A DNA stretch of 64,000 nucleotides from a virus (lineage: Duplodnaviria > Heunggongvirae > Uroviricota > Caudoviricetes): IMG/VR virus record IMGVR_UViG_3300031134_000466; one strand, 5' to 3'. The translations under genes and the position numbers were made by a program. Below the pieces are notes generated by a model. The model saw only the letters and a program-made list of their open reading frames with translations. It ran no database searches and had not been told where the DNA came from. Below, piece after piece: positions 13,538 to 63,158 of this stretch. Every line of letters starts with the position of its first letter. Position 1 is the first letter of the stretch.

Positions 13538-14050
13538 TTGCATTCTTCGGACCTTCCTGCTAAGGTAAGGAACATACAGTCCTTATTCGTTCCACCAGGA
13601 AGAAACAAAGCTTTTATGTTTGATGAGATTGGCTCGGCGCCTCAGACCCGGTACAAGCCCCGTGCGGGCGTTGTGCAGTTCCCTGAGAAGACTGCTCTTT
13701 CCAACCGTCAGCGTTCCTACCTGGATATTGCTGTTCGCCTCGCTGAGTCCTCGGATGCAAGCTTCAAGCACGGAGCAGTTATTGTTCGTGGCGGCAGCGT
13801 TCTTGCTGTCGGAGTGAACAAGTGGAAGAATCGTGACCTTCCTCCGACTCCCCCTGATGTGTACAACCCTGACATCACTGTCCACGCTGAGATTGATGCT
13901 CTTTCCCGAGTGAAGGACGCTCGCGGAACCACTGTCTACATTGCCCGAGTCACCCGTAGCGGCGACGAGCGTTTCTCTCGCCCCTGCAACCGTTGCGAGA
14001 AGGCTCTCATCGAGGCTGGAGTCAAGCGGGTCGTCTACACGGTAGGCTAA
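13538..14050 (+). CDS. dCMP/CMP deaminase (CDA fold)
   Basis: Zinc-binding HAE (HAEIDAL) and PCxxC (PCNRCEKAL) motifs with dCMP-deaminase spacing; true start may be an internal Met. Confidence 0.8.
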   Translation: MHSSDLPAKVRNIQSLFVPPGRNKAFMFDEIGSAPQTRYKPRAGVVQFPEKTALSNRQRSYLDIAVRLAESSDASFKHGAVIVRGGSVLAVGVNKWKNRDLPPTPPDVYNPDITVHAEIDALSRVKDARGTTVYIARVTRSGDERFSRPCNRCEKALIEAGVKRVVYTVG

Positions 14051-14127
14051 GACAAATAATTCCTAAGGCTGAACGTTTTACTGATAAAGTAAACGTTCAG
14101 CCTTATCTGTTTAACGAAAGAACCCTG

Positions 14128-14343
14128 ATGACTTGTCCACACTGTGCAATGGTAAACGAATGGCATCAATACAATTGCCCCACTGTACCCAAATTCGAAG
14201 ACATCTATGATGGACACCATTATTGGATTGCCTTCATGGATAGCCCTTATGCTTCATGTGCCTGGTGTGGAAAGATGAAAGGCAAACTTTCGTCAGCCCC
14301 AGATGCCCAATGTCGAGGAATCGTAAGAGTAGGATTACGTTAA
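14128..14343 (+). CDS. Small Cys-rich zinc-ribbon-like protein
   Basis: CPHC ... C ... CAWC arrangement; ATG at 14128 with purine-rich RBS; longer overlapping ORF from 13993 is probably not used. Confidence 0.4.
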   Translation: MTCPHCAMVNEWHQYNCPTVPKFEDIYDGHHYWIAFMDSPYASCAWCGKMKGKLSSAPDAQCRGIVRVGLR

Positions 14344-14388
14344 CTGAAAGAAGCCCTGACTTATAACCAGTCAGGGCTTCTTTCAGTT
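14342..14388. terminator. 20-bp perfect stem-loop between convergent genes
   Basis: aactgaaagaagccctgact ... agtcagggcttctttcagtt. Confidence 0.5.
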
Positions 14389-14394
14389 AATCAG

Positions 14395-16512
14395 TTACAG
14401 TTCACGACGACCTGTACGCAGTTCACGAAGCATACGCTCGTAAGCATATCCTGTCATTTCAGCGTCATTGTAAGCACGGTGAGCGCCAAGGTAAGGAACA
14501 TTGTAGCGGGCAGTGAATGAAGAGAGCTTATCGTTCGGAACATCAGTCAGAAGACGACGAGACAGTTTCAAAGTGTCAAGAATTTTGATTTTCTTGTGCT
14601 TCACAGCATCAGCAAAACCAGGAACATGTGTGGACATCCAACGCTGTTCAAAAGTCTTGTTGTGAGCCATCATGATACCAACATTTGTCAGCTGGTCAAG
14701 AACAGCAGTACCTTCAGCAGGGTTCAAGAACTGACGCTTCTTCGCAATCTGAGTTTCAGTAATACCATGCACTTCACTGTTGCCTGTGCTGCGAGTCAGG
14801 AGAGCTTTCTTCGAAAGACCGTAAAGCTTGCTTGTCTTAGCTTTCTCAGTGTCATTACGAGTCAGAGTAGAGTTACGGTAGTTGGTACGAACGGATGCAC
14901 CATACTCGATGATGCTACCTGAAGTAGGCTGAGAACCGGCAGTTTCCAAATCAACACTCACATAGTCAGGAAGCGTTTCCTGCTTAGCTGCCGTGACGTA
15001 GAGGCTACGAAGCTGAGCCGCAACATAGGTTCGGTCTTTGCGATTCTCATCATCGAAGTTGCCAGCAAACTCCTGCTCAACAACCTTAGAATCAACACCA
15101 CGCATTGTTGCAACTTCAGTGAAGATTTCCTGCTTCTCTTTGTTACTCAAGCTGGAGTTCAGAGCGTTCTGAGAGAAACCACGAGCGCGGTTACGTCCTT
15201 CCCAAGTACCAGCCTTACGGGAAGCAAGCTCGGTGTTGAACTTCTTCACAGCTTCAAGGTTGCCAGCAGCTTCCTGCTCAAGCTCAGGAGTCATAGTGAA
15301 ATGGTATTCACGGTATTCACGGTCGTCAATGACAACTGCAACCATACCACGCTTGAAACCAGCAGCCTGAGCATACCAAAGAGTCTGAGCTCGGTAAGTG
15401 TCAGGAACACCATCCAAACCATCTTCAGGGTTACCCCATTTGCCAGCAACAGAAGCAGTCTTGATTTCGACAATACCGTCAGGGTTACCATCCTTGTCAG
15501 CCATCAGACCGTCAAAGTTAGCAAACTGGAACTCGTTCTCGTTGTGCTTCCAAGAAGACTTGCAGAAAGTGATGTTGTCGTCAGGGTTGTTCTGCACAAC
15601 CTGGAGGAAGATTCGCTTCTCCCAAGCGTTACCACGACCAGCCGCGCCAGCATACTCTTCGTTGTTCAGTGCCTGCTCAGCAACCTGCTCATCAGTGATG
15701 GGTTCAAGCTTGGACTGCATGATTTCTTCATAGCTGTTGTAAGCACCCTTGACTCGCTTGATGGCTCCAACATCTGAACCACCAATACCTTTCTGACGCT
15801 GCTCAAGCCATTCACGAGTACCTGACTCGAACTCAGCAGTCTTAGTGAGTTCATTCAGCGTCTCTTTGTCATACTCACGCCATTCGCCAGCTTCACGAAG
15901 ACGGTTCTCTTCAAGGTCGGCAAGGTGAGCCACAACAGGTGCTGCAACGTCTTTGTACTCGTTAATCTGACGGCGGAGGAGACTGACTTCTTCGTTGATG
16001 TCAATCATCGCAAGTTCCTTCTGACGAACATCTTCGTAAAGGAACGCAGGGTCTTCTTCCCACTTCTTCTTCAGAAGGTCACGGTCAGCTTTAGTCTCCT
16101 CAAGAAGCTGCATGTTTGCATCACGCTTCTCAAGCAGGGCAGTAAAGTCTTCAGAGTTGATACGGTCCTGGATGAAGCTTTCCATGGCTTCCTCATCACC
16201 TGATTCAATCAGGCGGGCAGCTTCAGCTTTATCCTCTTCAACGGTCTTCAGAGCTTTCTGGTGACCGTAGGAACTAACAGGAGTGTAGGTACGCTCCATA
16301 GCTTCCTTCAAAATAGACATAGCAAGCAGGCTCTCAACATCGTTTGTGTTGTTCAGCTGCTTCTCAACCAGCTCAGCATTCTTGTGCTGATGATACTGGT
16401 ACTCAGTCATGTGTTCTCCGTTTATCAGTGTGCATTTCTTCTGTGCAGGGCAACGGACCCAATCGCCTTGCCTCTTGCCTGATTGCTGTTTATGGTAGTT
16501 CTTCATGGTCAA
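14395..16512 (-). CDS. Dual exonuclease: YqaJ/lambda-Exo-like PD-(D/E)xK domain fused to C-terminal DnaQ-like DEDDh 3'-5' exonuclease, with N-terminal coiled-coil
   Basis: GIGGSDVGAI motif, DG...DGIVEIK, Y..Q.Q (YqaJ family); then DLETAG (Exo I), AHNKTFE (Exo II), HRAYNDAEMT (Exo III, DEDDh). Confidence 0.7.
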   Translation of the reverse strand: MTMKNYHKQQSGKRQGDWVRCPAQKKCTLINGEHMTEYQYHQHKNAELVEKQLNNTNDVESLLAMSILKEAMERTYTPVSSYGHQKALKTVEEDKAEAARLIESGDEEAMESFIQDRINSEDFTALLEKRDANMQLLEETKADRDLLKKKWEEDPAFLYEDVRQKELAMIDINEEVSLLRRQINEYKDVAAPVVAHLADLEENRLREAGEWREYDKETLNELTKTAEFESGTREWLEQRQKGIGGSDVGAIKRVKGAYNSYEEIMQSKLEPITDEQVAEQALNNEEYAGAAGRGNAWEKRIFLQVVQNNPDDNITFCKSSWKHNENEFQFANFDGLMADKDGNPDGIVEIKTASVAGKWGNPEDGLDGVPDTYRAQTLWYAQAAGFKRGMVAVVIDDREYREYHFTMTPELEQEAAGNLEAVKKFNTELASRKAGTWEGRNRARGFSQNALNSSLSNKEKQEIFTEVATMRGVDSKVVEQEFAGNFDDENRKDRTYVAAQLRSLYVTAAKQETLPDYVSVDLETAGSQPTSGSIIEYGASVRTNYRNSTLTRNDTEKAKTSKLYGLSKKALLTRSTGNSEVHGITETQIAKKRQFLNPAEGTAVLDQLTNVGIMMAHNKTFEQRWMSTHVPGFADAVKHKKIKILDTLKLSRRLLTDVPNDKLSSFTARYNVPYLGAHRAYNDAEMTGYAYERMLRELRTGRREL

Positions 16513-16555: not shown

Positions 16556-17479
16556 TTAGTGAAGATGGGAGAAGTTTTTTACAGCATCAACAGAAACACC
16601 GTTGACTAACGGCTCTAACTCTTTAAGGAAAGAGTTCAGTTCACCTTCATCAGTAGCATGGAGTGTTTTTGAAGCGATTGTCAAAGCTCTACGACCAAGA
16701 AGAAGAGCTGCAAACTGATTCAAACCGTAATCACTCACTGATCTGCCCAGAAGAGTCTCATATTCTTGACGAGCAACTGTCCACAGTTCAGGACGACGCA
16801 TCCGGTGAACCAGGTGAAGATACAGATGAGCTAAATCATATTCGCGTGGAGCAGCTCTTGATTCTTCGAAGGAAGTCCAGACAACACTGTAGTCTTCTTT
16901 CATCACTAAGTTCTCTGGTGTGGCACGTCCATGACTGACAACATTGATTTCAGGTGTTGAAGAAATCATGTTGGTAACAGGCTGAATAATTACTTTGAAC
17001 AAATCCCGTAAACGGTTCTGATTCTCAGCAGTCAAATACTTGAACGAAGGAGAACCCAGCTTCTCTCCGTAGCGTAAGTAGTCATCATTGGAGCTTTCAT
17101 TCAACTGAGGATACTTCAAGCTGTTGTGGATGTAGAACAGTTCCCGTGCTGCGTGAGCTGCTTGCATGGGGTTCATGTTAGTCCCAATTGGATACAGACG
17201 TTCCCATTCCCAAGCGGACAGTACAAGAGGTAACCCTCGTGATGACCTATGGTGAACATTGTCGAATAGAGGGTTTGTACCGTAAGTGGTGTTTACTGCG
17301 AAATCAATTTCTGTTTGCAGAGGAGCTGGGTTAGTTTCTGGCCGGAGGAGCTTGACAAATACACGTTCGTTATCACTGAGAATGTGATGAGGGGAACGGT
17401 TCAAAGAGTCTAATCTCACGATACCGTAGGTGATGTAATTCTGGCTAAGAATTCGGCACACTTCGTGAACAAGATTCAT
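16556..17479 (-). CDS. Protein-kinase-like fold (APH/choline-kinase family-like) protein, possibly with altered catalytic Asp
   Basis: HGRATPENLV resembling HGDxxPGN catalytic loop with Asp replaced by Arg; downstream SFEES and YDLAHL resembling the DFE/DLA motifs. Confidence 0.3.
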   Translation of the reverse strand: MNLVHEVCRILSQNYITYGIVRLDSLNRSPHHILSDNERVFVKLLRPETNPAPLQTEIDFAVNTTYGTNPLFDNVHHRSSRGLPLVLSAWEWERLYPIGTNMNPMQAAHAARELFYIHNSLKYPQLNESSNDDYLRYGEKLGSPSFKYLTAENQNRLRDLFKVIIQPVTNMISSTPEINVVSHGRATPENLVMKEDYSVVWTSFEESRAAPREYDLAHLYLHLVHRMRRPELWTVARQEYETLLGRSVSDYGLNQFAALLLGRRALTIASKTLHATDEGELNSFLKELEPLVNGVSVDAVKNFSHLH

Positions 17480-18429: not shown

Positions 18430-21147
18430 ATGGCCACCCTCATCGGCGTATCAGGAAAAATTGCGTCAGGTAAAGATTACTTGACTGACAAGCTTGTAAA
18501 CGAACTGAAACGTCTTGGTTTTACCATCGACTACACAGCCTTCGCTGCACCCCTGAAGCAGGAACTCAACGAAATCATCTCTCTGATTCGAGCTTTCCCT
18601 GAACAGGATGAACTGACTCTTTCTTTCTCCATCGCTCGTAATCTGGACATCAACTACGATGATGCTCTTCTGATTGCTACTAATCTGAGAACAGAAGTGC
18701 TTGCAGATGAAACTCTCAACGGTTACTCACGAACAGTCAAAATTCGTGAATCTCTTCAGTATCTTGGTACAGAGATTCGCAGGAAGCAGCGTCCTGAATA
18801 CTGGACTGACTTGTTCTTGAACTTCGTCAACAATTCAGAAACAGATTTCATTTTCGTTTCAGATGCACGTTTTCCTAATGAAATGGACACGGTTGTCGAC
18901 AATCAAGGTGTTGCTCTACGTCTTGACATTCCAGAAGAAGTTCTTGCAGAGCGTCGAAACAAGCGTGACGGCATCAAATACACTGATGAGCAGTTGAATC
19001 ATATCTCAGAAACTGCACTGGATGATTACACCAAATTTGACATGATGATTGGTGTGCAGTTCAACGAACGTGAAATCGTAGAGAATATCCTGAAAAAAGT
19101 TGAACGACTTCAGGAACTTCCTGCAAAAGCTTCTCGCGTCCTGAAAGCCAAAATCGCAGAGCATACACCTTCAGTGTCAGATAAGAAAGATGTTTACCCA
19201 GAGGTGAATTTACCTGAAGGCCAGTACAAAGTGTTGTCTTTGTTTGCAGGTGCAGGTGGATTAGATTTAGGTTTTGAGTTAGCTGGATTAGAAGCAGTTC
19301 ACGGTAAAGAAAAAGTGGACGCTGCTTACAAAGACAAAAAAGCATTTGACGAGCTCCGCAAAGAGAACCTCATTCACACGGTCTACGTAAATGACAACTT
19401 CAAAGATGCAATAGCTTCCTACCGTCAGAACTTTCCTGAAACGTTTATTGACGAACGAGATATCAAAAAAATCAGCAGCTTCCCTGATGCAGACCTTCTG
19501 TTAGGTGGATTCCCTTGCTTCCCTAAAGGAACAGGTGTAGCTACAGAGACAGGTTACAAAAACATTGAAGATGTCGAGAAAGGTGATTTTGTTCTCACTC
19601 ATGAAGGTCGTTACCGTGAAGTAACAGACACCATGACACGCAATGTGAACAAATCAGCCACTCTACATGCTTACGGTTCTCTTCCTTTGGTCTCAACGGT
19701 GAATCATCCTTACTGGGTGAAAGAAACTGTCGATTCTGAACCTAAATGGGTTCATGCTGAGAACATTCAGCCAGGTTGGTTTGTGTCTCATCCAATCAGC
19801 ACATTCAGTACAGATGAAGTAACCGAAAAAGAAGCCAAGTTTGCTTACTTAGCCGGCGTCTTCGCTCAGTGTGGTACAAAAACTTTGAACGACGAGCACA
19901 AGCCAAGCTATCTCACTCCTTACAATGATGAGGAGTTCCTGGCTTTGCTGGCTGAAATTGATGCTGTCTGTTCAAAAGAAGGCAAAAACGTCATCGTCCA
20001 CAGTGAACAGCTGAACAAGATGATGAAATTGTTCGGAACTACCAAATGGAACAAAGTCATTCCTGAAGAGGTCCACCAGAAACCACGAGCTTGGCAGAAA
20101 GCTTTCCTTGACGGCTTCCTGTTCCACAACTCTGACCAGGAAGTGCACAGCAAGAACTTGGCTGTTGGCGTGGCTCGAATTATTCGTAGTTTGAACCCTA
20201 CACAGGATGTTATCGTGTCCTCACCCAAATACAGTTCCTGGATTGTAACTGCAACTGACACTACCGTAGCTCATCATGATGACAACTATGTATGGGTTCC
20301 TGTGGAGCGTTTGCAAGTAAGAAACGAAATGGGAGTACTTCCTGTTTACGATATTACTGTAGCCGAAGACGAATCATTCGTAGCAGATGGATTTGTAGTT
20401 CACAACTGCCCTGGCTTCTCAGCAGCAGGTCTTCGCATGTTAGATGACCCTCGCAACTTCCTGTACCTGCATTTCGTACGAGCTGTTGTTGACGCTCAAC
20501 CAAAGATTTTCGTAGCAGAAAACGTAAAAGGTCTACTCACTCATGGTCAAGGTGAAGCTTTCAACCAGATAGTCGAAGACTTTGCAGCAGCAGGTTACAC
20601 CATCTACTACAAGCTGATGAAAGCAATTCAGCATGGTGTACCTCAGATGAGAGAGCGATTGATTATTGTTGGTGTGCGAAACGACATTGATTTTGAATAC
20701 CAGCATCCTGCTGCCACTCATGGTGAAGGTCTACTTCCATACAAAACTCAAAGAGACGCTTTCTACGATTTGAGGGACCTGAACGATGAACACTACGAAG
20801 GAGACTTCTCTTCTCGCTACCGTTCCAGAAGGTTCAAACTGGACTGGGATGTACCGTCAAAGACCATTTTGGCAACAGGGCGGCACCTGCCTTTGCACCC
20901 TGACGGAGTGCCTCAGGAGAAGCTGGAGCAGGACTTGTGGAGTTTAGACGCTGCAGACCGTAGATTCACTGTAAGAGAAGCTGCACGAATCCAGACATTC
21001 CCTGACTGGTATGATTTCGTGACAACCTCTCGCGGAACAACCAACACAGTCCTGGAGAAACAGTACCGTCAGATAGGTAACGCTGTTCCTGTCGAACTGG
21101 GACGAGTTGTTGCTGAACCTATTGTTCAGTTCCTGAAAAGTCTGTAA
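18430..21147 (+). CDS. Fusion protein: T4 gp1-like dNMP kinase (N-terminal) + DNA (cytosine-5)-methyltransferase interrupted by an intein
   Basis: N-term GVSGKIASGKDY...AAPLKQEL and SDARFPNEMD match dNMP-kinase P-loop and DxR motifs; MTase motif I FAGAGG, motif IV GGFP-C...PGFSAAG (split by intein), ENV (motif VI), QMRER (VIII), GNAVPV (X); one continuous frame. Confidence 0.85.
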   Translation: MATLIGVSGKIASGKDYLTDKLVNELKRLGFTIDYTAFAAPLKQELNEIISLIRAFPEQDELTLSFSIARNLDINYDDALLIATNLRTEVLADETLNGYSRTVKIRESLQYLGTEIRRKQRPEYWTDLFLNFVNNSETDFIFVSDARFPNEMDTVVDNQGVALRLDIPEEVLAERRNKRDGIKYTDEQLNHISETALDDYTKFDMMIGVQFNEREIVENILKKVERLQELPAKASRVLKAKIAEHTPSVSDKKDVYPEVNLPEGQYKVLSLFAGAGGLDLGFELAGLEAVHGKEKVDAAYKDKKAFDELRKENLIHTVYVNDNFKDAIASYRQNFPETFIDERDIKKISSFPDADLLLGGFPCFPKGTGVATETGYKNIEDVEKGDFVLTHEGRYREVTDTMTRNVNKSATLHAYGSLPLVSTVNHPYWVKETVDSEPKWVHAENIQPGWFVSHPISTFSTDEVTEKEAKFAYLAGVFAQCGTKTLNDEHKPSYLTPYNDEEFLALLAEIDAVCSKEGKNVIVHSEQLNKMMKLFGTTKWNKVIPEEVHQKPRAWQKAFLDGFLFHNSDQEVHSKNLAVGVARIIRSLNPTQDVIVSSPKYSSWIVTATDTTVAHHDDNYVWVPVERLQVRNEMGVLPVYDITVAEDESFVADGFVVHNCPGFSAAGLRMLDDPRNFLYLHFVRAVVDAQPKIFVAENVKGLLTHGQGEAFNQIVEDFAAAGYTIYYKLMKAIQHGVPQMRERLIIVGVRNDIDFEYQHPAATHGEGLLPYKTQRDAFYDLRDLNDEHYEGDFSSRYRSRRFKLDWDVPSKTILATGRHLPLHPDGVPQEKLEQDLWSLDAADRRFTVREAARIQTFPDWYDFVTTSRGTTNTVLEKQYRQIGNAVPVELGRVVAEPIVQFLKSL
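19516..20406 (+). mobile_element. Intein (297 aa) with LAGLIDADG homing-endonuclease motifs, inserted at the catalytic Pro-Cys of MTase motif IV
   Basis: Starts with Cys (CFPKGTGVATETG...GDFVL block A), block B TVNH, two dodecapeptide motifs (YLAGVFAQCGT; FLDGFLFHNSD), ends VVHN followed by +1 Cys; excision restores GGFPCPGFSAAG. Confidence 0.8.
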
Positions 21148-26371: not shown

Positions 26372-27676
26372 ATGGGAAAAATCATTGAAGAGACAATGCT
26401 TGTCATGGTTGACACAAAGAACAACAACAACAAGTTCTACCATGTCACATTGGATGATGCTAACGTCGTCACCAAGCGCTGGGGACGTGTAGGAGCTGAA
26501 GGAGCGAGTTCCGTCGAGACAACAGGCAAGATTGGTTACGAGCGAGCCATCAAGTCCAAAGAGAAAAAGGGCTACAAGGTCTCACCTATTGTTAGCACAG
26601 GTGTCACAGTCAAGAGTTCTGTCAACCACCTTGACGAAGTAGCTAAGAAGTTTCTGTCCAAGGACAGCGGAGACAGCCTTATCAGCAACCTCATTGACCG
26701 ACTCATCGCATCAAACCAGCACCAGATTATGGAGCAGTCCGGTGGTATGATTAAGATTACCGACGACGGAACCGTAAAGACCGCTCTCGGTGTTGTTGAC
26801 CTTTGCTCCATCAACTCTGCCCGAGACCTCATTGGTGAGATGCAGAAGAAGAAAACAGGGCAGACCAAGCTCCTGGAAGATTACCTCACCCTCATTCCTC
26901 AGAACATTGGGTACCGTCGTGGTTGGGAAGAGGACTTCCTGAAGACGGAAAACTTTGCCAAGCAGATGGACTTCTTGAAGCAGCTTGAGGATTCTGTGCA
27001 GTGGCGAAACACCACCGCACAGGTCACCACAGATGACGAAGACAAGTTCGACATCGATGCTCACAAAGACCTGTTCCGCATGAACCTTGCGAAGATTTCC
27101 GACAGCGGAAAAGACTTCGACCGTATCAACAAGATGTTTAAAGAAACACGCAACAACATGCACACATCACGTAACCTCAAACTTGTGAACGTGTATGCAG
27201 TGGAAGATGTCAAGGGCAAGGAAGCTTACGAAGCTGCTCAGAAGAAGTATGGAAACGTACGTGAACTCTGGCACGGAACAAAAGCCTCCAATGTTCTCTC
27301 CATTCTCACAAAGGGATTGTTCGTGCCTAACGCAGGTAGCGGTATCCCTGTGACAGGAAGAATGTTCGGTGATGGTGTCTACTTCAGTGACCAGAGCACC
27401 AAAAGCTTGAACTACGCCAACGGTTACTGGGATGGTTCACGCACCAGCCAGAACTGTTTCATGCTTCTGAACGATGTTGTCATGGGTCATGAGTACCGCC
27501 CTCAGCGTTGGGACTACAGCTCTCTCCGTCAGGCACACAAGGGCGTTGGAACTTCAGGTAAGCCTTACCAGTCCATCAGCGTTCGTGGTGGAACCTGTAA
27601 CGTTCGAAACAACGAAATGATTATTTGGAACACTGACCAGGTGGCTGTACGTTACCTCTGCGAATTTGGTAGCTAA
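26372..27676 (+). CDS. Poly(ADP-ribose) polymerase (PARP)-like protein: WGR domain + helical regulatory region + catalytic domain with H-Y-E triad
   Basis: WGR motif KFYHVTL...VVTKRWGRVGAEG...KKGYKV; catalytic LWHGTKASNVLSIL (His), GVYFSDQSTKS (Tyr), YANGY, NEMIIWN (Glu) in PARP order. Confidence 0.85.
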   Translation: MGKIIEETMLVMVDTKNNNNKFYHVTLDDANVVTKRWGRVGAEGASSVETTGKIGYERAIKSKEKKGYKVSPIVSTGVTVKSSVNHLDEVAKKFLSKDSGDSLISNLIDRLIASNQHQIMEQSGGMIKITDDGTVKTALGVVDLCSINSARDLIGEMQKKKTGQTKLLEDYLTLIPQNIGYRRGWEEDFLKTENFAKQMDFLKQLEDSVQWRNTTAQVTTDDEDKFDIDAHKDLFRMNLAKISDSGKDFDRINKMFKETRNNMHTSRNLKLVNVYAVEDVKGKEAYEAAQKKYGNVRELWHGTKASNVLSILTKGLFVPNAGSGIPVTGRMFGDGVYFSDQSTKSLNYANGYWDGSRTSQNCFMLLNDVVMGHEYRPQRWDYSSLRQAHKGVGTSGKPYQSISVRGGTCNVRNNEMIIWNTDQVAVRYLCEFGS

Positions 27677-28538: not shown

Positions 28539-29579
28539 ATGACCACTGCTACTAAATGTGCCAAACCAAAAGGGGTATATTGCCGTTTGCACAACCCTGA
28601 ACCTCGTGGGTATGCTTCTGCATCAGAAGCGTTAAATAAAGCAGAGCAGGACTTCAACAAAGCCAACCCGATCAAATCTTCTTCTCCTGGTGTTTCTTTT
28701 CATAAAAACGGTGAGACTCGCACATTGCACAAAAGTGTTCCAGAGAACATTGCTGACCATATTGCTTTGAATCAAGAACAACTGTCTCACTTGTCAGACA
28801 TGCAGAAGAAAGCTTTGAACGGTTACACCGGCTTTGCTGCAGGTGTTTGCAATAGTGTGTTGTTAGCAAAAGAATTCGCTTATGAGTATTACGAAGATGC
28901 CCCTCTATGGAAAGAAGCCCCAGGAGGAGCGTGTGACTTTGTTTCTCGTGAAGATTTAGTTGACTACATGGAAACAATGGATGGTATCCTTGCTTCCCGC
29001 CAGGAACAATCCCGAGTTCTATACCGTGGTATTCCTATTTACTCAGAACTGCATGACGAGATTGGTAATGGCATAGGTAAAAAGCTGCCTTTCGCTGATG
29101 CTACTGGCTTAGCAGAGGGTTTGAGTGAATATTACAAGCCTGGTACTGTCATTAAGCATGACCATTACTTGTCCACAACAGCATCAGCGTATTATGCAGC
29201 TGACCGTACAGACAATTCCATCGGGACAAAAAAGAGCTATTACGATAGCAATGATGTACCAGTCGGTATTGTCTTTGAGCTGAAAACCAATGCTGGTTTG
29301 GATGTTACAGCTGCAGCTCGTCATCATTCTTATGAACGTGAAGTGGTGTTACCTCGTGAAACTTACTTCAAAGTTGTCAACGTGGACGTGAATCCACAAG
29401 CTTATGACACTGTTTCAGGATTCGATACGCTCAACCATCCTGAGGAGCGAGAGCAGAAAACTTTCACTCGCTTAGCTGCTGTTGTTCAGATGGTCGAAGT
29501 AGACAAAAACGGCAAAGAAATAACAGGTACTGCACCTCATAATCCAGAGAGAAAAATCAGCGACATCATTCCTGGATGA
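28539..29579 (+). CDS. Mono-ADP-ribosyltransferase (R-S-E class) with N-terminal Cys-KP-C-H module
   Basis: N-term KCAKPKGVYCRLH; Arg motif VLYRGI, Ser-Thr motif YLSTTAS, catalytic YEREVVLPRETYFKVV (E-x-E). Confidence 0.7.
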   Translation: MTTATKCAKPKGVYCRLHNPEPRGYASASEALNKAEQDFNKANPIKSSSPGVSFHKNGETRTLHKSVPENIADHIALNQEQLSHLSDMQKKALNGYTGFAAGVCNSVLLAKEFAYEYYEDAPLWKEAPGGACDFVSREDLVDYMETMDGILASRQEQSRVLYRGIPIYSELHDEIGNGIGKKLPFADATGLAEGLSEYYKPGTVIKHDHYLSTTASAYYAADRTDNSIGTKKSYYDSNDVPVGIVFELKTNAGLDVTAAARHHSYEREVVLPRETYFKVVNVDVNPQAYDTVSGFDTLNHPEEREQKTFTRLAAVVQMVEVDKNGKEITGTAPHNPERKISDIIPG

Positions 29580-30499: not shown

Positions 30500-31465
30500 A
30501 TGTGCTACCCCAAACCTGGTCCTCGCTGTTCAGCTCATGCTGCAGTTAAACTGGCGACTGTAAAACTCGCTTCTACCAGCGGTAGTCAAGATTTTGCCGA
30601 GTACTTAGCTCATCAGGAGCGTCTTGAAGAAGCTCAGCTGGAGTATGACATCACGCCAGCAGGTTTGAAAGATTTACAGGATTTAGTGGGTCAACGAAAT
30701 GACCCTGACGCTGAGCTCCGTTATTCCAAAGCTAAAGCCCTGAGAGCAAAGAAGTTGGCTTTGTTGCATGAAGACCAGAAACAAGAGCAAGGTCATACTC
30801 TTGCAAGGGTTCAAGGGGTAAATGAAGATTTTTGTTCTGATGAAATTGTTCGTTCTAACAAAGATGCTGGAATCACATCCGCAGCTTTAGTAGCTGAAGC
30901 TGAACCGTGGTTTAATCAGTTGAACGATGATGAACTTTCTCAAATGCACTGGATGACCGACTATGGTTCAATGGAAGCTAATACGCACATCGCAGGAACC
31001 AATGACCATAAACGTTTTGGTGGTCTATTCTCTGCAGAGAACTTGGAATCTCGTATGGTTCAAGTTGACTCGGCTTTGAGTAAGTTTGAGTCACATCATG
31101 ATGAAGTTGTCTACAGGGGCTTTCGTGAAGGCTCTCTTCCCTCTGCTATGGCAAACAACTACCGGGTATCAGATGATGTGAAGCAAGCTGCAGTTCTGAA
31201 ATCTTTCACCGTAGGTGAAGTCTACAAGTCTGATTTCTACATGCCAACTTCTGTACAGCCTGAAGAGGCTGCTCGTTTTGCTGATTTCGGTTGCGTCATG
31301 GAAATCAAAACCCGCAAAGCTGCTCCTGTATCTGCCATTTCTGAAGTTCCCCGTGAGTCAGAAAAACTGATTGGTCGTAACAGTGAATTCAAAGTCGTGG
31401 CAATCAAAGAGAACATCATGTACGGCATTAAGAGAATGACTGTTGTTCAGTTAGAGCAACTCTAA
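30500..31465 (+). CDS. Mono-ADP-ribosyltransferase (R-S-E class) with N-terminal MCYPKPGPRCSAHA module
   Basis: Arg motif VVYRGF, Ser-Thr motif YMPTSV, catalytic PRESEKLIGRNSEFKVV (E-x-E). Confidence 0.7.
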   Translation: MCYPKPGPRCSAHAAVKLATVKLASTSGSQDFAEYLAHQERLEEAQLEYDITPAGLKDLQDLVGQRNDPDAELRYSKAKALRAKKLALLHEDQKQEQGHTLARVQGVNEDFCSDEIVRSNKDAGITSAALVAEAEPWFNQLNDDELSQMHWMTDYGSMEANTHIAGTNDHKRFGGLFSAENLESRMVQVDSALSKFESHHDEVVYRGFREGSLPSAMANNYRVSDDVKQAAVLKSFTVGEVYKSDFYMPTSVQPEEAARFADFGCVMEIKTRKAAPVSAISEVPRESEKLIGRNSEFKVVAIKENIMYGIKRMTVVQLEQL

Positions 31466-39327: not shown

Positions 39328-40449
39328 TCAGTCAGCAGTTTTTCCGTTCAAGTTCCAGAATGGCTTCTCAAACTCAGGCTGAATCATTTTCCAGATGATG
39401 TCAGAGATTTTCTTCTCAGACCTGGTATCAAAATGACCTCCGCTGTGACGAGAGAATAACAAACCAGTAATGCGTTTGTCTTCTTTCTGTACAGCTGCAG
39501 CGTAGTCCTTCTGAGTGTATCCTTCAGGAAGTTCAGAAAGAATACGGTTGTAAGTTTCCTCAACTGTTGCACGCAATTCAGCATGCTCTGCAAGTAGTCG
39601 GTCACGAGTTGTTTCGACATACTCAACGAACTCATCAGGGAGACCAACAATCCATGAAGTGAAGTCACCGTCAGCTACAAGCAGCTCCCAGATGCGACGC
39701 GAAGAAGCACCTGTGATGACACGGTGAAGCTGAACGTAGTCATCCTGTTTCACTTTCACTCGAACATCACTATCCAGGAAGTGAACAACAACGCCTTCTT
39801 TGTTCTCACGACCAGGAGCGGCCAAAGCTTCAGTAAGGCTGTTGTATTCAAACTGCTCAACCTTCAACCAAGTCCATTCATCAACCTGTGATGCTGGTAC
39901 AGAGCGACCTGTTGCTGTGTTCACTCGGGCAATCAAGATGAGGTCATCCAAATCACCGTAGTTAACAACGATACGGTTTGTAGGGTAGATGATTTCCCAG
40001 ATGTAAGTTTCACCAGCAAGTGGCTCCCATTTTCCGTCGTACAGCTCCTGGTAACGTGCTGTGGCATGCAGAGCCTGCTCAGAGCTGAATGAACCTCGTG
40101 TGGAGATGTTCAGTCGACCAGTTTCAGGGTTTACATATGAAACACCCATAGAACCATCTGCTTTGTCTGTGACAACGATAGGTCCAGTCAGTGCATCCTG
40201 AGGAACATCTGGTTCGCCGTGGTTAAAGAACTTACCAAGAGGGCGGGAGACAATCTCCTGGGTGGAACCGTCAACGATAAGTCCTCGTGAAGCTAATGTT
40301 GCAGCGTTCCAGGCTCGGTCAAACTGGCATACCTGTGAGTAGTCAAAGATAGCCAGGTCAAGCGTAGGGTGAACCTGACGATTGATGTGCTTGTTCTGGA
40401 ATTCAGCTGCCCAAAGTTCAGCAGGAGCGATATCGTAAATGTGTACCAT
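39328..40449 (-). CDS. ATP-dependent RNA ligase (Rnl family), paralog 1
   Basis: Nucleotidyltransferase motif I TDKADGSMG (KxDG), same order of downstream motifs as ORF 54122. Confidence 0.7.
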   Translation of the reverse strand: MVHIYDIAPAELWAAEFQNKHINRQVHPTLDLAIFDYSQVCQFDRAWNAATLASRGLIVDGSTQEIVSRPLGKFFNHGEPDVPQDALTGPIVVTDKADGSMGVSYVNPETGRLNISTRGSFSSEQALHATARYQELYDGKWEPLAGETYIWEIIYPTNRIVVNYGDLDDLILIARVNTATGRSVPASQVDEWTWLKVEQFEYNSLTEALAAPGRENKEGVVVHFLDSDVRVKVKQDDYVQLHRVITGASSRRIWELLVADGDFTSWIVGLPDEFVEYVETTRDRLLAEHAELRATVEETYNRILSELPEGYTQKDYAAAVQKEDKRITGLLFSRHSGGHFDTRSEKKISDIIWKMIQPEFEKPFWNLNGKTAD

Positions 40450-42792: not shown

Positions 42793-44685
<1,893 letters not shown>

Positions 44686-46365: not shown

Positions 46366-47154
46366 ATGATGACTACAAACAGTTTCCAGAAAAAAGCCAT
46401 TCGTGAACGAATGAAGCACACTGGTGAACCGTACCTCGAAGCTTCCCGCCAGCTTTATGGAACCTCTGACAAGTTTCCTACTCCATGGTCTGAACTCAAT
46501 AAAGTTTTGGACGGTGGACTAAGAAAAGGTTCAGTTACTCTTCTTGGCTCTGGACCAGGAGGAGGTGCCACAAGCACAGCTATCAGCATCGCAGAAGGTG
46601 CTAAAAATAAGAGAGCTTTGTATGTTTCCTCGGAAATCTATGGACAAGAATTTCGCACTTTGGACAGTAAGCGGGATGATGATTCTTCTGACCTTATTTT
46701 CATCTACATCGGGCGAGAACAGTTTGGTAACTTAGTCGGCTCTTTGAAAGGGATGGTGTCATCAGTACATGACATCAAAGATGAACCTGATGTCGAGCTT
46801 ATTGTTATTGACTCTTTCGACTTTCTGACTCCTGAACTGCCTACGGTCCAAGAAGCAGCTGCTATGTCTGCTCAAATTAAGAAAATGGCTATCGAGCTTA
46901 ACCTTCCAGTAGTTCTTCTTACTCATTTGAGTACACAATCTGCACACGAAAAAAACCACTTCAGACATTCTTCTGATTTGGTCCAAGACTCTGATGTAAT
47001 ACTCACCTCTCATGTTGAAGGAGAGGGTGTCAACTTAGTTGTTCGCAAAAACAGATTCGGGGACTACGGTCAAAAGATTGCTTTAGATTGGGACAAAAAG
47101 AACTGCTTAATGACATCGAAAAAGTCTACTAATAACTCCTCAGAAACCAACTGA
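46366..47154 (+). CDS. DnaB-helicase C-terminal-domain-like (RecA-fold) protein with degenerate Walker A
   Basis: LNKVLDGGLRKGSVTLLGSGPGGGATS (Walker A without Lys), Walker B ELIVIDSFDFL, LPVVLLTHLS, and DnaB hallmark VVRKNRFGDYGQKIALDWD; no N-terminal DnaB domain. Confidence 0.55.
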   Translation: MMTTNSFQKKAIRERMKHTGEPYLEASRQLYGTSDKFPTPWSELNKVLDGGLRKGSVTLLGSGPGGGATSTAISIAEGAKNKRALYVSSEIYGQEFRTLDSKRDDDSSDLIFIYIGREQFGNLVGSLKGMVSSVHDIKDEPDVELIVIDSFDFLTPELPTVQEAAAMSAQIKKMAIELNLPVVLLTHLSTQSAHEKNHFRHSSDLVQDSDVILTSHVEGEGVNLVVRKNRFGDYGQKIALDWDKKNCLMTSKKSTNNSSETN

Positions 47155-51757: not shown

Positions 51758-52729
51758 TTAAATTTCTCGCAGCTGCACAATTGTCAGTTCAGTTGCTTCA
51801 CCTTTTTTATTGACCCTTTTGACTTTCACATCATTAGCAACAACTTCGAATTTTGCACCACGAGGAATGATGAACTCATACTCTCTTGGACCTTGCGATG
51901 AAATAGCTGTGATTGGGGCTCCACTTTTTGTAAGAATCTGTAAAGAAACATTGATGTTGTCTTTGGAAGGTAAATCTTGAGGATTCAAACTTGTCGATAA
52001 GAAGAATTTAGGTTCGTAAGTGCTACCAACAGGGAAATGTTTGTCGAGGTTTTGAGCGTCATCACTTGAATGATATCCTTTTTCATCATAAAGATGATGA
52101 CGGCGGTAAACCATCACGCCTTCTTCTGCTGGTTCGTGTTTAGCAAAAGCATCATCCAGGATAGTTACAGCTGCATCCAACGTTTCAGGTGCAACATTTT
52201 TTGCGTACGGATTTGTTGAAGCTGAAAGATGGCCGTTGATGTCAGCATAGCCATCTTCTGAATACCAGCGAAGAGTAGCTATTTCAGTATCATCCAGTTT
52301 GGCACTCCAGTTTTGGGAATCTGCCATGCTGTTCAACAGGTCAGCATGTTTGTAATGCATCTCTTCAAGAGTGTCACCAGTTTCGAAAAACGTCGGAGAA
52401 GTGTAAGCAGCTTTTTGTGCTTTTTTGTGGGTGATGACTTTACGATCCGCAACAGCAGCTAATCTTCTGGCTCGTTCTTGAGAAAGCGCTTCGTATTCTT
52501 CTGCATGCCATTCCTGCGTTGGATTCTTTTTGATCTGTCTTTCCAAAGACTTTAGATAAGCTGGTGTTAGTTTGTACTCTGCTTCAGCTTTTCTTCTTAC
52601 CGCTATTAGCTTCTCAAGCTCTGGGTCTTTGCGGTTGTCCATGAAAGCACTGAGAACCGCTTGATGAGCTTTAGCGTAGGTGGCTGCAGCATGAGCTGAA
52701 CAACGGGGACCAGGTTTTGGGTAACACAT
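51758..52729 (-). CDS. Mono-ADP-ribosyltransferase (R-S-E class) with N-terminal MCYPKPGPRCSAHA module
   Basis: Arg motif MVYRRH, classic STS motif FLSTSLN, catalytic PREYEFIIPRGAKFEVV (E-x-E); N-terminal 100 aa paralogous to ORF 30500. Confidence 0.7.
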   Translation of the reverse strand: MCYPKPGPRCSAHAAATYAKAHQAVLSAFMDNRKDPELEKLIAVRRKAEAEYKLTPAYLKSLERQIKKNPTQEWHAEEYEALSQERARRLAAVADRKVITHKKAQKAAYTSPTFFETGDTLEEMHYKHADLLNSMADSQNWSAKLDDTEIATLRWYSEDGYADINGHLSASTNPYAKNVAPETLDAAVTILDDAFAKHEPAEEGVMVYRRHHLYDEKGYHSSDDAQNLDKHFPVGSTYEPKFFLSTSLNPQDLPSKDNINVSLQILTKSGAPITAISSQGPREYEFIIPRGAKFEVVANDVKVKRVNKKGEATELTIVQLREI

Positions 52730-54121: not shown

Positions 54122-55363
54122 ATGTCAACTACAAGAAAACCTCCTTATCATCACAGCGATGGTACAAACTGCTGGACTAAAGATTGTTCGATCAGAGGCC
54201 GTGAAGATACAGAAAAAGCTGCTTTCTTCAAGCAAGTAGAAACAGCTGCTGAGACTGTTGTTCCAACCAATGAATTGCCTCCTCTGTCAGCTTTTCAGAA
54301 AGCCTATGATGATGGTCGCATTGAGTGCAGCCGCCACCCTGAACATCCTTATGTGACTTACAAGTATTCCAGAACAACTCAGTTTGCTTCTGACTGGGAT
54401 GATGTGACCTTAGCGTCTCGTGGTGTCATCTTCAATGAGGAGACAGGCGAGATTGTTGCTCGTCCATTTGCTAAGTTCTTCAACCATAACGAACCGTCAG
54501 TTCCCAGAGACAAATTACATGGCCGTATTAGTGTAACTGACAAGCTGGACGGTTCTTTAGGAATTGGTTATGTTGATGAGAACGGTAAGTTCAACATTGC
54601 AACCTCTGGAAGCTTTATCTCTGAACAGGCAAAACGTTCTACAGAGCTCTATCATGAGCGTTATGAAGGCAACTGGAAGCCAAATCCTAAGTTGACCTAC
54701 ATGTGGGAAATCATCTACCCAGAAAATCGTGTCGTGGTCAACTATGGCGATGAAGATGACTTGCATCTCATCGGTGCTGTCAACAAACGAACTGGTAAAT
54801 CAGTTCCGTTGCGTGACATCAAAGAATGGAAGTGGAAAAGAGCTGAAGAGTACAAAGACTTCTCCTCCTTGGATGCTGTTCTTCACTCTCCTGAAAGAGA
54901 AAACCGTGAAGGTTTCATTGTTCATTACATCGATACTGATACCCGCGTGAAATACAAGCATGCAGATTATCTTGAGCTCCATCGTAACCGTACTGGCGTG
55001 ACTTCCAAAACTATCTGGCGTAAAATGCGTATGGGTGAAGATATGGCAGGTTGGAAAGAGAACATGCCTGAAGAGTTCAGTGAGTTCGTATCCACTCGTC
55101 AAGCTAAAATCACTGCCGGATATAACAAAGAAATTGCCCAAATTACTGATGAGCATGGCACTTTCAAAGCAACTCTTCCTGCTGGTTATGACCGTAAGAC
55201 TTTTGCTACCACTTTGAAAAACTCACCTCTTGTACCAGCCGAAAACAAAGCTTTCGTCATGAACCTTGAGTTCAACGGCAGTGCTGTTGGAAGTGTTGTT
55301 CAATCTCATAAGATTTGGGACCGTGTGAAACCTGAGGACGAGAACACCTTGTGGAACATGTAA
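54122..55363 (+). CDS. ATP-dependent RNA ligase (Rnl family), paralog 2
   Basis: Motif I TDKLDGSLG; collinear with ORF 39328 (SRG..F..E....ARP.AKFFNH.EP, GSF.SEQA, YMWEIIYPENRVVVNYGD, REG.VVH). Confidence 0.7.
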   Translation: MSTTRKPPYHHSDGTNCWTKDCSIRGREDTEKAAFFKQVETAAETVVPTNELPPLSAFQKAYDDGRIECSRHPEHPYVTYKYSRTTQFASDWDDVTLASRGVIFNEETGEIVARPFAKFFNHNEPSVPRDKLHGRISVTDKLDGSLGIGYVDENGKFNIATSGSFISEQAKRSTELYHERYEGNWKPNPKLTYMWEIIYPENRVVVNYGDEDDLHLIGAVNKRTGKSVPLRDIKEWKWKRAEEYKDFSSLDAVLHSPERENREGFIVHYIDTDTRVKYKHADYLELHRNRTGVTSKTIWRKMRMGEDMAGWKENMPEEFSEFVSTRQAKITAGYNKEIAQITDEHGTFKATLPAGYDRKTFATTLKNSPLVPAENKAFVMNLEFNGSAVGSVVQSHKIWDRVKPEDENTLWNM

Positions 55364-55746: not shown

Positions 55747-56412
55747 ATGAAGAACACATACGGAATTCTCGGCGGATATGGGGCGGTAGCCACCCTACAT
55801 CTCCAGCAGCTGCTCGTGAAGCGAGTCCTCAGCACTGGACAGTACGCTGATATTGCCTTCCCTCGTATGGTAATTTCCAATCTGCCTGAAGACATCATCA
55901 ATGCTGAAGGACATATCAGCAGCCTTGGTAGCCTGCGGACTGAACTTGGTAAAACAGCTCCTCTATTCCAAGGAGCCACAGATGTTTATGTCATTTGTAA
56001 CACCTTCCATGTCGAAGAAGAGTTCATGCAGCGAGTCTTCGCTAACAAACTACATTCTGTTCCGGCTTTAACCAGTCAAGCTGTCGTAGATGCTGGATAC
56101 TCCAAACCTCTTATCGTAGGTTCCAAGCTGACTTCTCAGGATAACCTGTACAGTCATACAGCTTACACCTCAACTAACATGTTTGCGGATGAGCTAATCA
56201 CTGCTGGAATGAAGTACCAGACATCTCACTCTCAGCTGGCAGATGTCATAGCTGCTGCCAAACAGGCTAGCTCAGACTGCATTGTTTTAGGTTGCACAGA
56301 TTTGTCCGTGATGGCTGACACTCTCCGAACCATGACTGCACTTCCCGTAATCGACTCCGTTGAAGCAGTCGCCAACCATATTTACAACTCCCATACGAAA
56401 GATGAATCGTGA
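55747..56412 (+). CDS. Asp/Glu/hydantoin racemase-family protein
   Basis: N-terminal ILGGYGAVATLH (GGMG-type motif) and second-half VLGCTDLS (GCTE-type) with the two catalytic-Cys-region positions. Confidence 0.65.
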   Translation: MKNTYGILGGYGAVATLHLQQLLVKRVLSTGQYADIAFPRMVISNLPEDIINAEGHISSLGSLRTELGKTAPLFQGATDVYVICNTFHVEEEFMQRVFANKLHSVPALTSQAVVDAGYSKPLIVGSKLTSQDNLYSHTAYTSTNMFADELITAGMKYQTSHSQLADVIAAAKQASSDCIVLGCTDLSVMADTLRTMTALPVIDSVEAVANHIYNSHTKDES

Positions 56413-57374
56413 AAGTCTACAACGACACAGTAACCATGACTGCAGAGCTGGCTCAGACCTTAGAGCAATTGAGAGCTGTGCGGGCTTTTGACGCTACAGA
56501 ATGGATTGAGCGTAAGGTTGTCCTAATCAACCAGTACTTCGCTCAGAACAAGCTCTCAGGGGCTGTAGTAGGTGTTTCTGGTGGCATCGACTCAGCTGTA
56601 GCCCTTTCACTTCTTGTCAAAGCATCCCAGCAAGACAACAGCCCAATTCAGAAGATTGTCCCTCTTCTACTTCCTGCTCTTTCTTACGAAGGTGCAACTA
56701 ACCAAGACGGGGCAGTTCAGCAGGCTACTGACCTATGCCAGAACCTTGGACTGAAGCCAGCTGTTTTCACTAAGCTCACATCTCTTTCCCAAGTGATTAC
56801 TTCTGAACTGGAAGACATTCTGGACATCAAATCAACAGACTGGGCTAAAGGACAGCTAGTGGCTTACACCAGAACCCCAGTCCTGTACAACACCTGCTCA
56901 ATCCTTACTGACGCCGGCTACCCTGCACTGGTTGTAGGAACCACAAACCTTTCCGAAGGTGGATACCTCGGTTATGTCGGAAAAGCTTCAGATGGTATGG
57001 TTGACCTGCAAGTAATTTCTGATTTGTACAAGTCAGAAGTGTACAAAGTCGCAGCTTTACTTGAAGTTCCTGAAAGCGTTATGAAAGCTACTCCTACAGG
57101 GGACATGTACGACGGTCGTGAAGATGAAACAGTTTTCGGAGCTTCTTACGACTTCGTAGAGCTGTTTCATCTATGGCTACAGGCACGCAGCGTCCCATTG
57201 AAACTTCTTCGAGATGCCCACTTTGTCACAGGAGCTAAAAACCTGCAAAAACTGCACGACTACAACGCACATAAGTACACCTACGGAACTCCATCCATTC
57301 ACCTGGACATTATGAACGCAGCAATCCCAAACGGATGGAACAATCAGCCTTGGAGGCCCCAGAATGGCAACTAA
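56409..57374 (+). CDS. Divergent NAD+ synthetase (NadE)-like PP-loop amidotransferase
   Basis: PP-loop VGVSGGIDSAVA; GTTNLSEGGYLGYVGKASDGMVDLQVISDLYKSEVYKVA matches NadE GT.N.SE...GY.TKYGDG..D..P; 4-nt overlap with upstream gene. Confidence 0.7.
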   Translation: MKVYNDTVTMTAELAQTLEQLRAVRAFDATEWIERKVVLINQYFAQNKLSGAVVGVSGGIDSAVALSLLVKASQQDNSPIQKIVPLLLPALSYEGATNQDGAVQQATDLCQNLGLKPAVFTKLTSLSQVITSELEDILDIKSTDWAKGQLVAYTRTPVLYNTCSILTDAGYPALVVGTTNLSEGGYLGYVGKASDGMVDLQVISDLYKSEVYKVAALLEVPESVMKATPTGDMYDGREDETVFGASYDFVELFHLWLQARSVPLKLLRDAHFVTGAKNLQKLHDYNAHKYTYGTPSIHLDIMNAAIPNGWNNQPWRPQNGN

Positions 57375-62238: not shown

Positions 62239-62312
62239 TCACAAAAACGTGCTTTTTCGTCAATATGACGATATACTGTAATAAGAATGGTCTAAGGAAG
62301 GAAACCCGTATC

Positions 62313-63158
62313 ATGACCAAGCTCCAGAAACAGATTATTAACACTCTTGGGGTAAAACCCGTCATCAATGCCGAACAGGAGCTACGCACTCGTGTAGATT
62401 TCCTCAAAGACTTCACCCGTAATGCTGGCACCAGAGGATTTGTACTTGGAATCAGTGGTGGACAGGACTCTGCTCTTGCCGGCTACATTGCACAGACAGC
62501 TGTCCGTGAACTCCGCGACGAGACGGGTGAGAACTACCAGTTCTTAGCTCTTCTTCTTCCTTACGGGACTCAGAAAGACGCTGATGATGCAATCACCATC
62601 GCCCGTGACTTCATCAAGGCTGACCAGGTAATTGAGTACAACATCAAGCCTGCAGTGGATGCTTTCACTGACCAGTACAATGACATCGCTGGCTGGTCAG
62701 GCGATGAAGCTGATAACCTCAGCGATTACCATAAAGGTAACGTCAAAGCCCGCACCCGTGCCGTAACACAGTACGCTTACGCTGGTACCCATCAGCTGCT
62801 TGTTGTAGGTACAGACCATGCTGCTGAGGCAGTATCAGGCTTCTTCACCAAGTTCGGTGACGGTGCAGCTGACGTTCTCCCTTTGAGCGGTTTGAACAAA
62901 CGTCAGGGCAAAGAGCTTCTTCGCTTGGCAGGTGCTCCCGAGTTCGTCATCACCAAAGCTCCCACAGCGGACCTTCTGGACAACAAAGCAGGTCAGGCTG
63001 ATGAGACTGAGCTGGGTATTACATACGATGTTCTTGACGACTACCTTGAAGGTAAAGATGTCAATGTAGTTGCAGCTCAGAAAATTGAACTGCGTTACCT
63101 GATGACAGAACACAAGCGTCAACTCCCAGTTGACCCTGCAGCAACATGGTGGAAGTGA
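62313..63158 (+). CDS. nadE: NH3-dependent NAD+ synthetase
   Basis: Near-collinear with E. coli NadE from the N-terminus ([34 protein letters not shown]...[13 protein letters not shown]); ATG 62313 with AAGGAAGG RBS. Confidence 0.9.

Follow-up and report, generated by a model that had tools for sequence, protein, structure and literature searches.

The window analysed here, a stretch of 64,000 nucleotides, belongs to IMG/VR record IMGVR_UViG_3300031134_000466, a virus assigned to the Caudoviricetes. Positions 14395..16512 on its minus strand hold the coding sequence of a 705-amino-acid protein in which two exonuclease domains are fused, a YqaJ/lambda-exonuclease-type PD-(D/E)XK domain (residues 229-433, 15214..15828, minus strand) followed by a DEDDh 3'-5' exonuclease domain (residues 513-700, 14413..14976, minus strand). 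A His-Cys-Cys-His mini-module (residues 3-36, 16405..16506, minus strand) and a Glu-rich helical region (residues 37-228, 15829..16404, minus strand) precede the first domain, and a linker (residues 434-512, 14977..15213, minus strand) connects it to the second. Residue numbers refer to the 705-residue translation from the window. The listed frame runs from TTG 16512 to the stop codon TAA at 14397-14395. An ATG at 16506, two codons further inside, would yield 703 amino acids; this product is likelier because homologues begin with MK(K/N)YH and the relative P0001 has the same length, and ATG 16506 is probably the true start. The remaining two minus-strand frames across 14395..16512 contain 28 and 83 stops.

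Two nuclease domains in one polypeptide

The YqaJ half was recognised by Pfam YqaJ (PF09588) at residues 234-386 (E 1.4e-13, 51.8 bits against a cut-off of 22) and by PHROG 434, "RecE-like recombination exonuclease", at residues 222-414 (3.5e-27). The NCBIfam lambda-exonuclease model TIGR03033 gave 58.2 bits, under its cut-off of 68.05. D334, E349 and K351 of the PD-(D/E)XK triad and Q376 of the QxxxY motif are present in 86/86 aligned relatives, and Y380 in 85/86. W235 and R239 (EWLEQRQ) are also invariant in this alignment; they may be the counterparts of lambda Exo W24 and R28, the latter a 5'-phosphate-binding Arg. The half adopts a lambda-exonuclease fold, and fold comparison links it to lambda Exo and LHK-Exo. 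With the YqaJ half alone, sequence searching detected no relative in the PDB, the link to lambda Exo being one of fold only.

In the second half, Pfam RNase_T (PF00929) matched residues 518-690 (E 5.3e-12, 47 bits against a cut-off of 24), the DEDDh fold was found as well, and PHROG 192, "DNA polymerase exonuclease subunit", covered residues 494-698 (9.2e-22); the NCBIfam matches were to PolC, DinG and epsilon models. The motifs are D521/E523 (Exo I), H617-N618..E622 (Exo II) and H678..D683 (Exo III), and D521, E523, N618, H678 and D683 are invariant in 86/86 aligned relatives. The acidic residue of Exo II is Glu622 rather than the usual Asp, AHNKTFE aligning with AHNANFD of PolC. Glu occupies this position in 85/86 relatives, in 186 of 191 fused proteins and in all 15 relatives that consist of DEDDh without YqaJ, so that HNxxFE reads as the mark of a DEDDh subfamily, strictly D-E-E-D-h in its sequence. 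Activity is plausible because an acidic side chain is kept at the Exo II position. By profile, fold and motifs, the Exo II Glu excepted, the fusion is a member of both the YqaJ and the DEDDh superfamilies. The first-pass annotation had placed a YqaJ-like and a DnaQ-like domain in one polypeptide; hidden Markov models (HMMs) and structure now support both, and the motifs quoted for each lie at the residues it gave. Judged by these motifs, the single chain very probably carries two catalytically competent exonuclease sites.

The AlphaFold2 model of the protein, built on 86 family sequences, has a mean predicted local distance difference test score (pLDDT) of 92.9, a predicted template modelling score (pTM) of 0.88 and no segment below a pLDDT of 50, values that indicate one ordered body and not separate domains strung loosely together. 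The helical region contains long helices at residues 121-153 and 160-207, is 16.7% Glu and is conserved family-wide, with R117, R130, R163 and Y186 nearly invariant. The linker consists of a coil (residues 434-457, about 24 residues) and three helices (458-471, 475-484 and 494-509), all modelled at pLDDT 88-97. It is the least conserved part of the protein (25% mean identity), yet its length is nearly constant at 64-99 residues.

The N-terminal mini-module (H7, C21, C27 and H34) forms three short strands in the model and is probably a zinc knuckle. A Pfam scan of seven module peptides returned no family match, and tblastn found no match to the module in GenBank phages. The pattern M..[YF]H-x7-13-C-x5-7-C-x6-10-H[FY] heads various nucleic-acid enzymes of these elements, namely the fusion nuclease, a T4 Rnl1-like RNA ligase, PNKP, a 2H phosphoesterase and an HD_4 protein. 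All 13 matches to this expression, from nine loci, lie at a predicted N-terminus, with none internal. They include 16405..16506 (minus strand) and 54122..54256 (plus strand) in the window, positions 2129, 8368 and 14851 of locus L089, 8218, 15817, 18447 and 20214 of L007, 7598 of L008 and 4358 of L005. Other members of the fusion family have alternative N-termini (NPYHDxxGRFxSR, MCxSKAEGGxRC or MSHLTPVxIxDKNGKxTTVH).

Conservation, distribution and gene neighbourhoods

A word-indexed search of 5.8 billion proteins yielded 87 relatives with 24-99% identity, all annotated as YqaJ and 85 of them also as RNase_T, and 372 proteins at E <= 1e-30 came from an exhaustive profile search across 1.84 billion cluster representatives. 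Per-domain HMMs built from the fusion family were used to sort the 224 sequences collected. Both domains were carried by 191, including 104 of 137 new representatives at 50% identity, and YqaJ preceded DEDDh in 190 of the 191; another 17 had YqaJ without DEDDh and 15 DEDDh without YqaJ. The pairwise identities of the two halves correlate with r of 0.853, a value reached in none of 999 permutations, as expected if the halves are inherited together. The conserved fusion spans well over a hundred sequence clusters, drawn from phage-like genomes of very large size and from megaplasmids of actinobacteria.

Contigs that carry it are often very long (782, 482, 637, 885, 696, 617, 725 and 828 kb), and the window itself matches a 782-kb JGI contig (L001). 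Sought in other phages, the same fusion was present in full, among the matches listed, on six IMG/VR contigs of 197-398 kb (L007-L012) and in none of 50,697 GenBank phage records; the other 74 IMG/VR matches listed were YqaJ-only and on contigs of at most 50 kb. These IMG/VR matches came from an alignment-based scan, which was needed, as a scan with a single sequence gave no match. The six contigs, viral according to IMG/VR, encode an M78-peptidase protein next to the fusion and show no structural gene in the 20 kb examined; given the plasmid of Dietzia described below, some may be megaplasmids rather than jumbo phages. BFVD held no full-length architectural match (best TM 0.30, normalised to the query). 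Species-representative genomes gave one full match, on a 14-kb contig of a metagenome-assembled genome, in a scan with three short conserved peptides that misses divergent members such as those of Rhodococcus and so understates the distribution.

In PLSDB, a 228-kb plasmid of Dietzia sp. oral taxon 368 encodes WP_106386856.1 (649 amino acids), with both Pfam domains above threshold and both active sites kept. Rhodococcus plasmids of 216-423 kb encode WP_064112218.1 (740 amino acids; L096 9221..11443 in Rhodococcus sp. YL-1 pYLC1), whose DEDDh site is intact, whereas the catalytic residues of its YqaJ half have been lost (GGSD to PGTH, FDG to LTA and EIK to IVK). On a 670-kb contig (L090) syntenic with L089, a YqaJ-only homologue stands in the fusion's place; a 349-amino-acid open reading frame (ORF) that follows it was considered as a split-off DEDDh half and rejected as unrelated. 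The Dietzia plasmid also encodes a second exonuclease outside the fusion family, WP_106386813.1 (L097 6988..9249), a DEDDh protein with the HNxxFE Glu, whose long C-terminal extension resembles a helicase on visual inspection.

No paper in the literature searched joins YqaJ with DnaQ, DEDD or epsilon in one such protein, and a comparative survey of jumbo phages leaves the fusion unmentioned; JGI automatic annotation names both halves in some members. The architecture is previously undescribed, though both domains come from known superfamilies. The fusion had been called unusual in the first-pass annotation, which holds for GenBank phage records, BFVD and the literature searched and not for metagenomes, where the family is sizeable, nor for the megaplasmids of cultured actinobacteria.

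Gene order around the fusion differs between clades. In the window's clade (the window, L001 and L092; fusions 63-99% identical) it is a MazG-like gene, a 307-amino-acid protein of no known family, the fusion, dCMP (deoxycytidine monophosphate) deaminase and the small subunit of ribonucleotide reductase (RNR), with NT5C and a kinase-like P-loop protein also near. In a second clade (L003 and L093), whose fusions share 41-45% identity with the query, the order runs T2SSE ATPase, the fusion, C5 methylase, dCMP deaminase, dihydrofolate reductase and thymidylate synthase. On deeper branches the fusion has genes for PNKP, 2H-SAK phosphoesterase, Thg1, HD_4 and RNA ligase at a distance of no more than a few kb. 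In L087 it is near RecX, RNase H and PurA, and in several loci near helicase genes. Genes for single-stranded DNA-binding protein (SSB), RusA and DnaB adjoin the fusion on the Dietzia plasmid, which also encodes DnaG, and RusA and DnaB adjoin its homologue on the Rhodococcus plasmids. On the Dietzia plasmid, an Hsp70-family gene lies with DnaB near the fusion.

No member of the RecT, ERF or Rad52 families was found in any fusion context examined, across clades and plasmids. As controls, the closest stand-alone YqaJ genes of ordinary phages (Propionibacterium PFR1, Gordonia Bantam, Geobacillus GBSV1 and Fusobacterium JD-Fnp3) were directly followed by a RecT-like gene in 4/4 cases. All-against-all BLASTP of the flanking ORFs without annotation in 11 loci, run to find a conserved partner, gave matches within clades only, and no polymerase gene adjoins the fusion in any context examined.

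The gene that precedes the fusion in the window (16556..17479, minus strand) encodes the 307-amino-acid protein and lies 49 nucleotides ahead of the fusion's ATG; the two are possibly co-transcribed. Only the closest clade keeps it beside the fusion, with 50% identity in L092. Its product has no Pfam or PHROG match, and a PDB search gave insignificant matches only, one of them to aminoglycoside phosphotransferase (E 1.2); together with the motif HGRATPENLV this hints at a kinase-like fold. Downstream, a terminator-like hairpin (14340..14390, minus strand; perfect 22-bp stem, 7-nucleotide loop, no T-run) starts 5 nucleotides beyond the fusion's stop codon and separates convergent genes. Its stability of -37.7 kcal/mol (z -10.3) was matched by none of 200 shuffles. 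A small Cys-rich ORF with CPHC ... CAWC, zinc-ribbon-like (13993..14343, plus strand), lies between the fusion and dCMP deaminase and converges on this hairpin; the matching position in L002 holds a 78-amino-acid gene on the opposite strand relative to the fusion, and hence a different ORF.

The gene content of the window is giant-phage-like, with RNR and an SNF2 helicase among its genes. A PARP catalytic domain with WGR and three ADP-ribosyltransferase (ADPrib_exo_Tox) paralogues are encoded at 26372..27676, 28539..29579, 30500..31465 and 51758..52729, two NAD synthetase-like proteins at 56409..57374 and 62265..63158, two T4 Rnl1-type RNA ligases at 39328..40449 (minus strand) and 54122..55363 (plus strand), and a full-length Hsp70/DnaK at 42826..44685 (plus strand, 771 bits). 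A 905-amino-acid protein (18430..21147, plus strand) combines a P-loop kinase-like N-terminus with a C5 DNA methyltransferase that is itself interrupted by an intein (Hint_2/Intein_splicing); its N-terminus shows faint matches of the deoxynucleoside monophosphate (dNMP) kinase type and is a separate 230-amino-acid gene in L092. A 262-amino-acid protein (46366..47154, plus strand) matches only the C-terminal part of DnaB-like helicases. Pfam and PHROG scans of 10 unannotated window ORFs, the 307-amino-acid neighbour among them, gave no match, and the window contains no tRNA, no Rfam match and no capsid or terminase gene. The contig of one relative carries T4 rIIA/rIIB-like genes. Published huge-phage genomes reach 841 kb (10.1101/2025.01.14.633092), and several single contigs that carry the fusion are near or above this length (L089, 828,236 bp; the longest contig of P0028, 885,359 bp; and the window's own L001, 782 kb).

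Possible action at DNA ends

Enzymes of the lambda-Exo/RecE PD-(D/E)XK type digest the 5'-phosphorylated strand of a duplex from 5' to 3', and those of the lambda type unpair terminal base pairs. DEDDh enzymes of the PolC/DinG/epsilon type remove nucleotides from a 3'-OH end from 3' to 5' and prefer single strands. Together the two halves may form a coupled mechanism that degrades both strands, a reading that we put forward tentatively and at somewhat below an even chance. The predicted helical N-terminal region and structured linker would hold both nucleases in one compact body, and the enzyme would act at double-strand DNA ends, where the 5' end of one strand lies beside the 3' end of the other. 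Two rigidly coupled sites could travel together there because both digestions would run the same way into the duplex, the only geometry that allows it. Through the YqaJ domain the final nucleotides of the 3' strand would become single-stranded, the form of substrate that proofreading-type DEDDh enzymes prefer. The net result would be an ATP-independent, helicase-free recession of both strands to mononucleotides (dNMPs), comparable in outcome to AddAB or RecBCD acting in their degradative mode. In a giant phage-like element the likely targets would be linear DNA, such as a cut host chromosome or broken or foreign DNA; an end-requiring exonuclease would not in itself be harmful to a circular chromosome. 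The products could feed the neighbouring enzymes of dNMP metabolism, namely dCMP deaminase, the RNR small subunit, NT5C and the MazG-like protein. PNKP, often encoded nearby, generates 5'-phosphate and 3'-OH ends, which both sites need. The role first proposed, in which both strands would be resected for recombination or to degrade host DNA, is compatible with all of the findings.

Several points weigh against such a coupled degradation. The substrate and polarity assumed for the fusion are taken from family membership. The variants with one working half (L090 and Rhodococcus) show that the two activities are not strictly interdependent. The SSB-RusA-DnaB module of Dietzia and Rhodococcus is more suggestive of replication and recombination than of wholesale degradation, and breaking down host DNA would bring a resident plasmid no benefit. 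Proximity to nucleotide genes is weak evidence because phages commonly cluster genes of DNA metabolism, and an unrecognised annealing protein may be present among the neighbouring ORFs that belong to no family.

The explanation that we rank next, doubtful as we hold it to be, is a recombination and repair nuclease that serves the replicon itself. Here the YqaJ half would resect 5' strands to leave 3' tails, and the DEDDh half would only edit 3' ends, clearing away 3' flaps and any terminal nucleotides that are damaged, mismatched or non-homologous, before annealed or invaded ends are extended or ligated; the partner, a single-strand annealing protein (SSAP), RecA or UvsX, would be encoded elsewhere or supplied by the host. 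The characterised YqaJ relatives are recombination exonucleases (PHROG 434 and TIGR03033 by profile, lambda Exo and LHK-Exo by fold), and the megaplasmid neighbours, SSB, the Holliday-junction resolvase RusA and DnaB, fit such a role, as do RecX and RNase H in L087 and the helicase genes of several loci. The PNKP neighbours would also suit end repair. However, the adjacency of exonuclease and SSAP seen in the four control phages is missing from all fusion contexts, and no partner gene recurs across clades. That no annealing protein can be recognised beside the fusion speaks against a Red/RecET role of the classical kind. A 3'-5' exonuclease fixed next to the site of resection would be apt to degrade the very 3' tail that recombination needs, and the predicted rigid, compact body suits the trimming of distant flaps less well.

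It is improbable, in our estimate, that DEDDh is the main activity, serving as a trans-acting proofreader or 3'-end trimmer for replication while YqaJ mainly binds DNA ends or acts as a scaffold. The best relatives of the C-terminal half, PolC, epsilon and DinG, and its PHROG 192 match agree with this, the Rhodococcus homologues keep DEDDh alone intact, and DnaB is encoded near the gene on both plasmids, with DnaG as well on that of Dietzia. Nevertheless, the YqaJ catalytic residues are as invariant as those of DEDDh in the 86 closest relatives, it is the YqaJ half that occupies the syntenic position in L090, and the gene has no adjacent polymerase.

Still less probable, indeed very much so, is the processing of RNA ends in a module for RNA or tRNA repair, in which RNase T-like 3' trimming would work with PNKP, 2H phosphoesterase, Thg1 and RNA ligase and counter host anticodon nucleases. 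The clustering of PNKP, 2H-SAK, Thg1, HD_4 and RNA ligase within a few kb in L089, L007, L010 and L093 would be explained in this way, and several of these neighbours share the N-terminal His-Cys-Cys-His module. This association is absent from the window's own clade, however. By score the DEDDh half is much closer to DNA exonucleases (PolC exo E 1.7e-23, DinG 1.5e-14, epsilon 2.5e-09) than to RNA exonucleases (RNase T 0.002, oligoribonuclease 0.01 and weaker), and the characterised YqaJ/lambda-Exo enzymes act on DNA. The probability that frameshift-merged genes or a decaying pseudogene account for the architecture is negligible, since the same uninterrupted frame with both domains recurs in 191 of the 224 relatives, from independent assemblies and from finished plasmids of cultured strains, with the linker confidently modelled and the catalytic residues, save the Exo II Glu and Y380 (85/86 each), invariant in 86.

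Comparison with known systems and significance

Compared with lambda exonuclease, RecE and LHK-Exo, which form trimeric or tetrameric toroids, the fusion has about 230 additional N-terminal residues and a C-terminal DEDDh domain, and it stands without a recognised adjacent annealing protein, such as accompanies the YqaJ gene of the 4/4 control phages. It differs from the DEDDh domains (PF00929) of PolC, DnaQ (epsilon) and DinG in its Exo II Glu and in being joined to a nuclease rather than to a polymerase or helicase-like domain. Pfam and NCBIfam scans of the 705 residues found no polymerase domain and no P-loop, helicase or ATPase family. Because the defining features of the Red/RecET, polymerase-proofreading and helicase-nuclease classes were looked for and not found, the fusion falls outside all three.

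AddAB, AdnAB and RecBCD also process both strands of one end, and in AddAB and AdnAB one nuclease site is dedicated to each strand. The likeness would be one of function only; these enzymes and the fusion are not homologous in the 3'-5' half. As the fusion has no helicase or ATPase domain, hydrolysis itself would have to drive any processive action, as it does in lambda Exo. The breakdown and salvage of host DNA by T4 is carried out by separate proteins of different families (denA, gp46/47 and DexA), with denA adjoining nrd, td and frd, whereas no endonuclease partner was identified for the fusion. In CRISPR adaptation, Cas4 and Cas2-DEDDh likewise pair PD-(D/E)XK with DEDDh in trimming the two end types of one fragment, and the DEDDh half matches Cas2-DEDDh structures. 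In PADLOC, this half matched only the generic model of CRISPR-associated DEDDh and part of the candidate PDC-S48 model; beyond the generic domain, no defence-system protein model matched the fusion, and no cas genes or other defence-system proteins were detected. Unlike that pair, the fusion is one polypeptide, and its PD-(D/E)XK domain is of the lambda-Exo type rather than the Fe-S Cas4 type.

A more specific proposal, an "end shredder", is unlikely to hold in all of its parts jointly. It would part the strands of the duplex, without helicase or ATP, inside one rigid polypeptide or a toroidal oligomer, leading the 5' strand to the lambda-Exo site and the 3' strand to the Glu-variant DEDDh site, and the shared His-Cys-Cys-His module would mark end-processing enzymes (the nuclease, PNKP, RNA ligase, 2H phosphoesterase and HD protein) recruited to a common site or partner. 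If true, a minimal single-chain counterpart of AddAB/RecBCD would have evolved in giant phages and megaplasmids.

The two domains normally reside in separate proteins and have opposing effects on recombination, one making 3' tails and the other destroying them. Their conserved and, as predicted, rigid fusion, with both sites under strict selection, implies an unstudied way of processing DNA ends, with its main occurrence in the largest extrachromosomal replicons known. The question is directly testable, since the Dietzia protein WP_106386856.1, in which both sites are kept, is from a cultured strain. Should the two sites act together at one end, no simpler enzyme would be known for the processive, ATP-free degradation of both strands of a duplex. 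Such an enzyme could be a useful reagent, and it would bear on how giant phages supply themselves with nucleotides or exclude their competitors.

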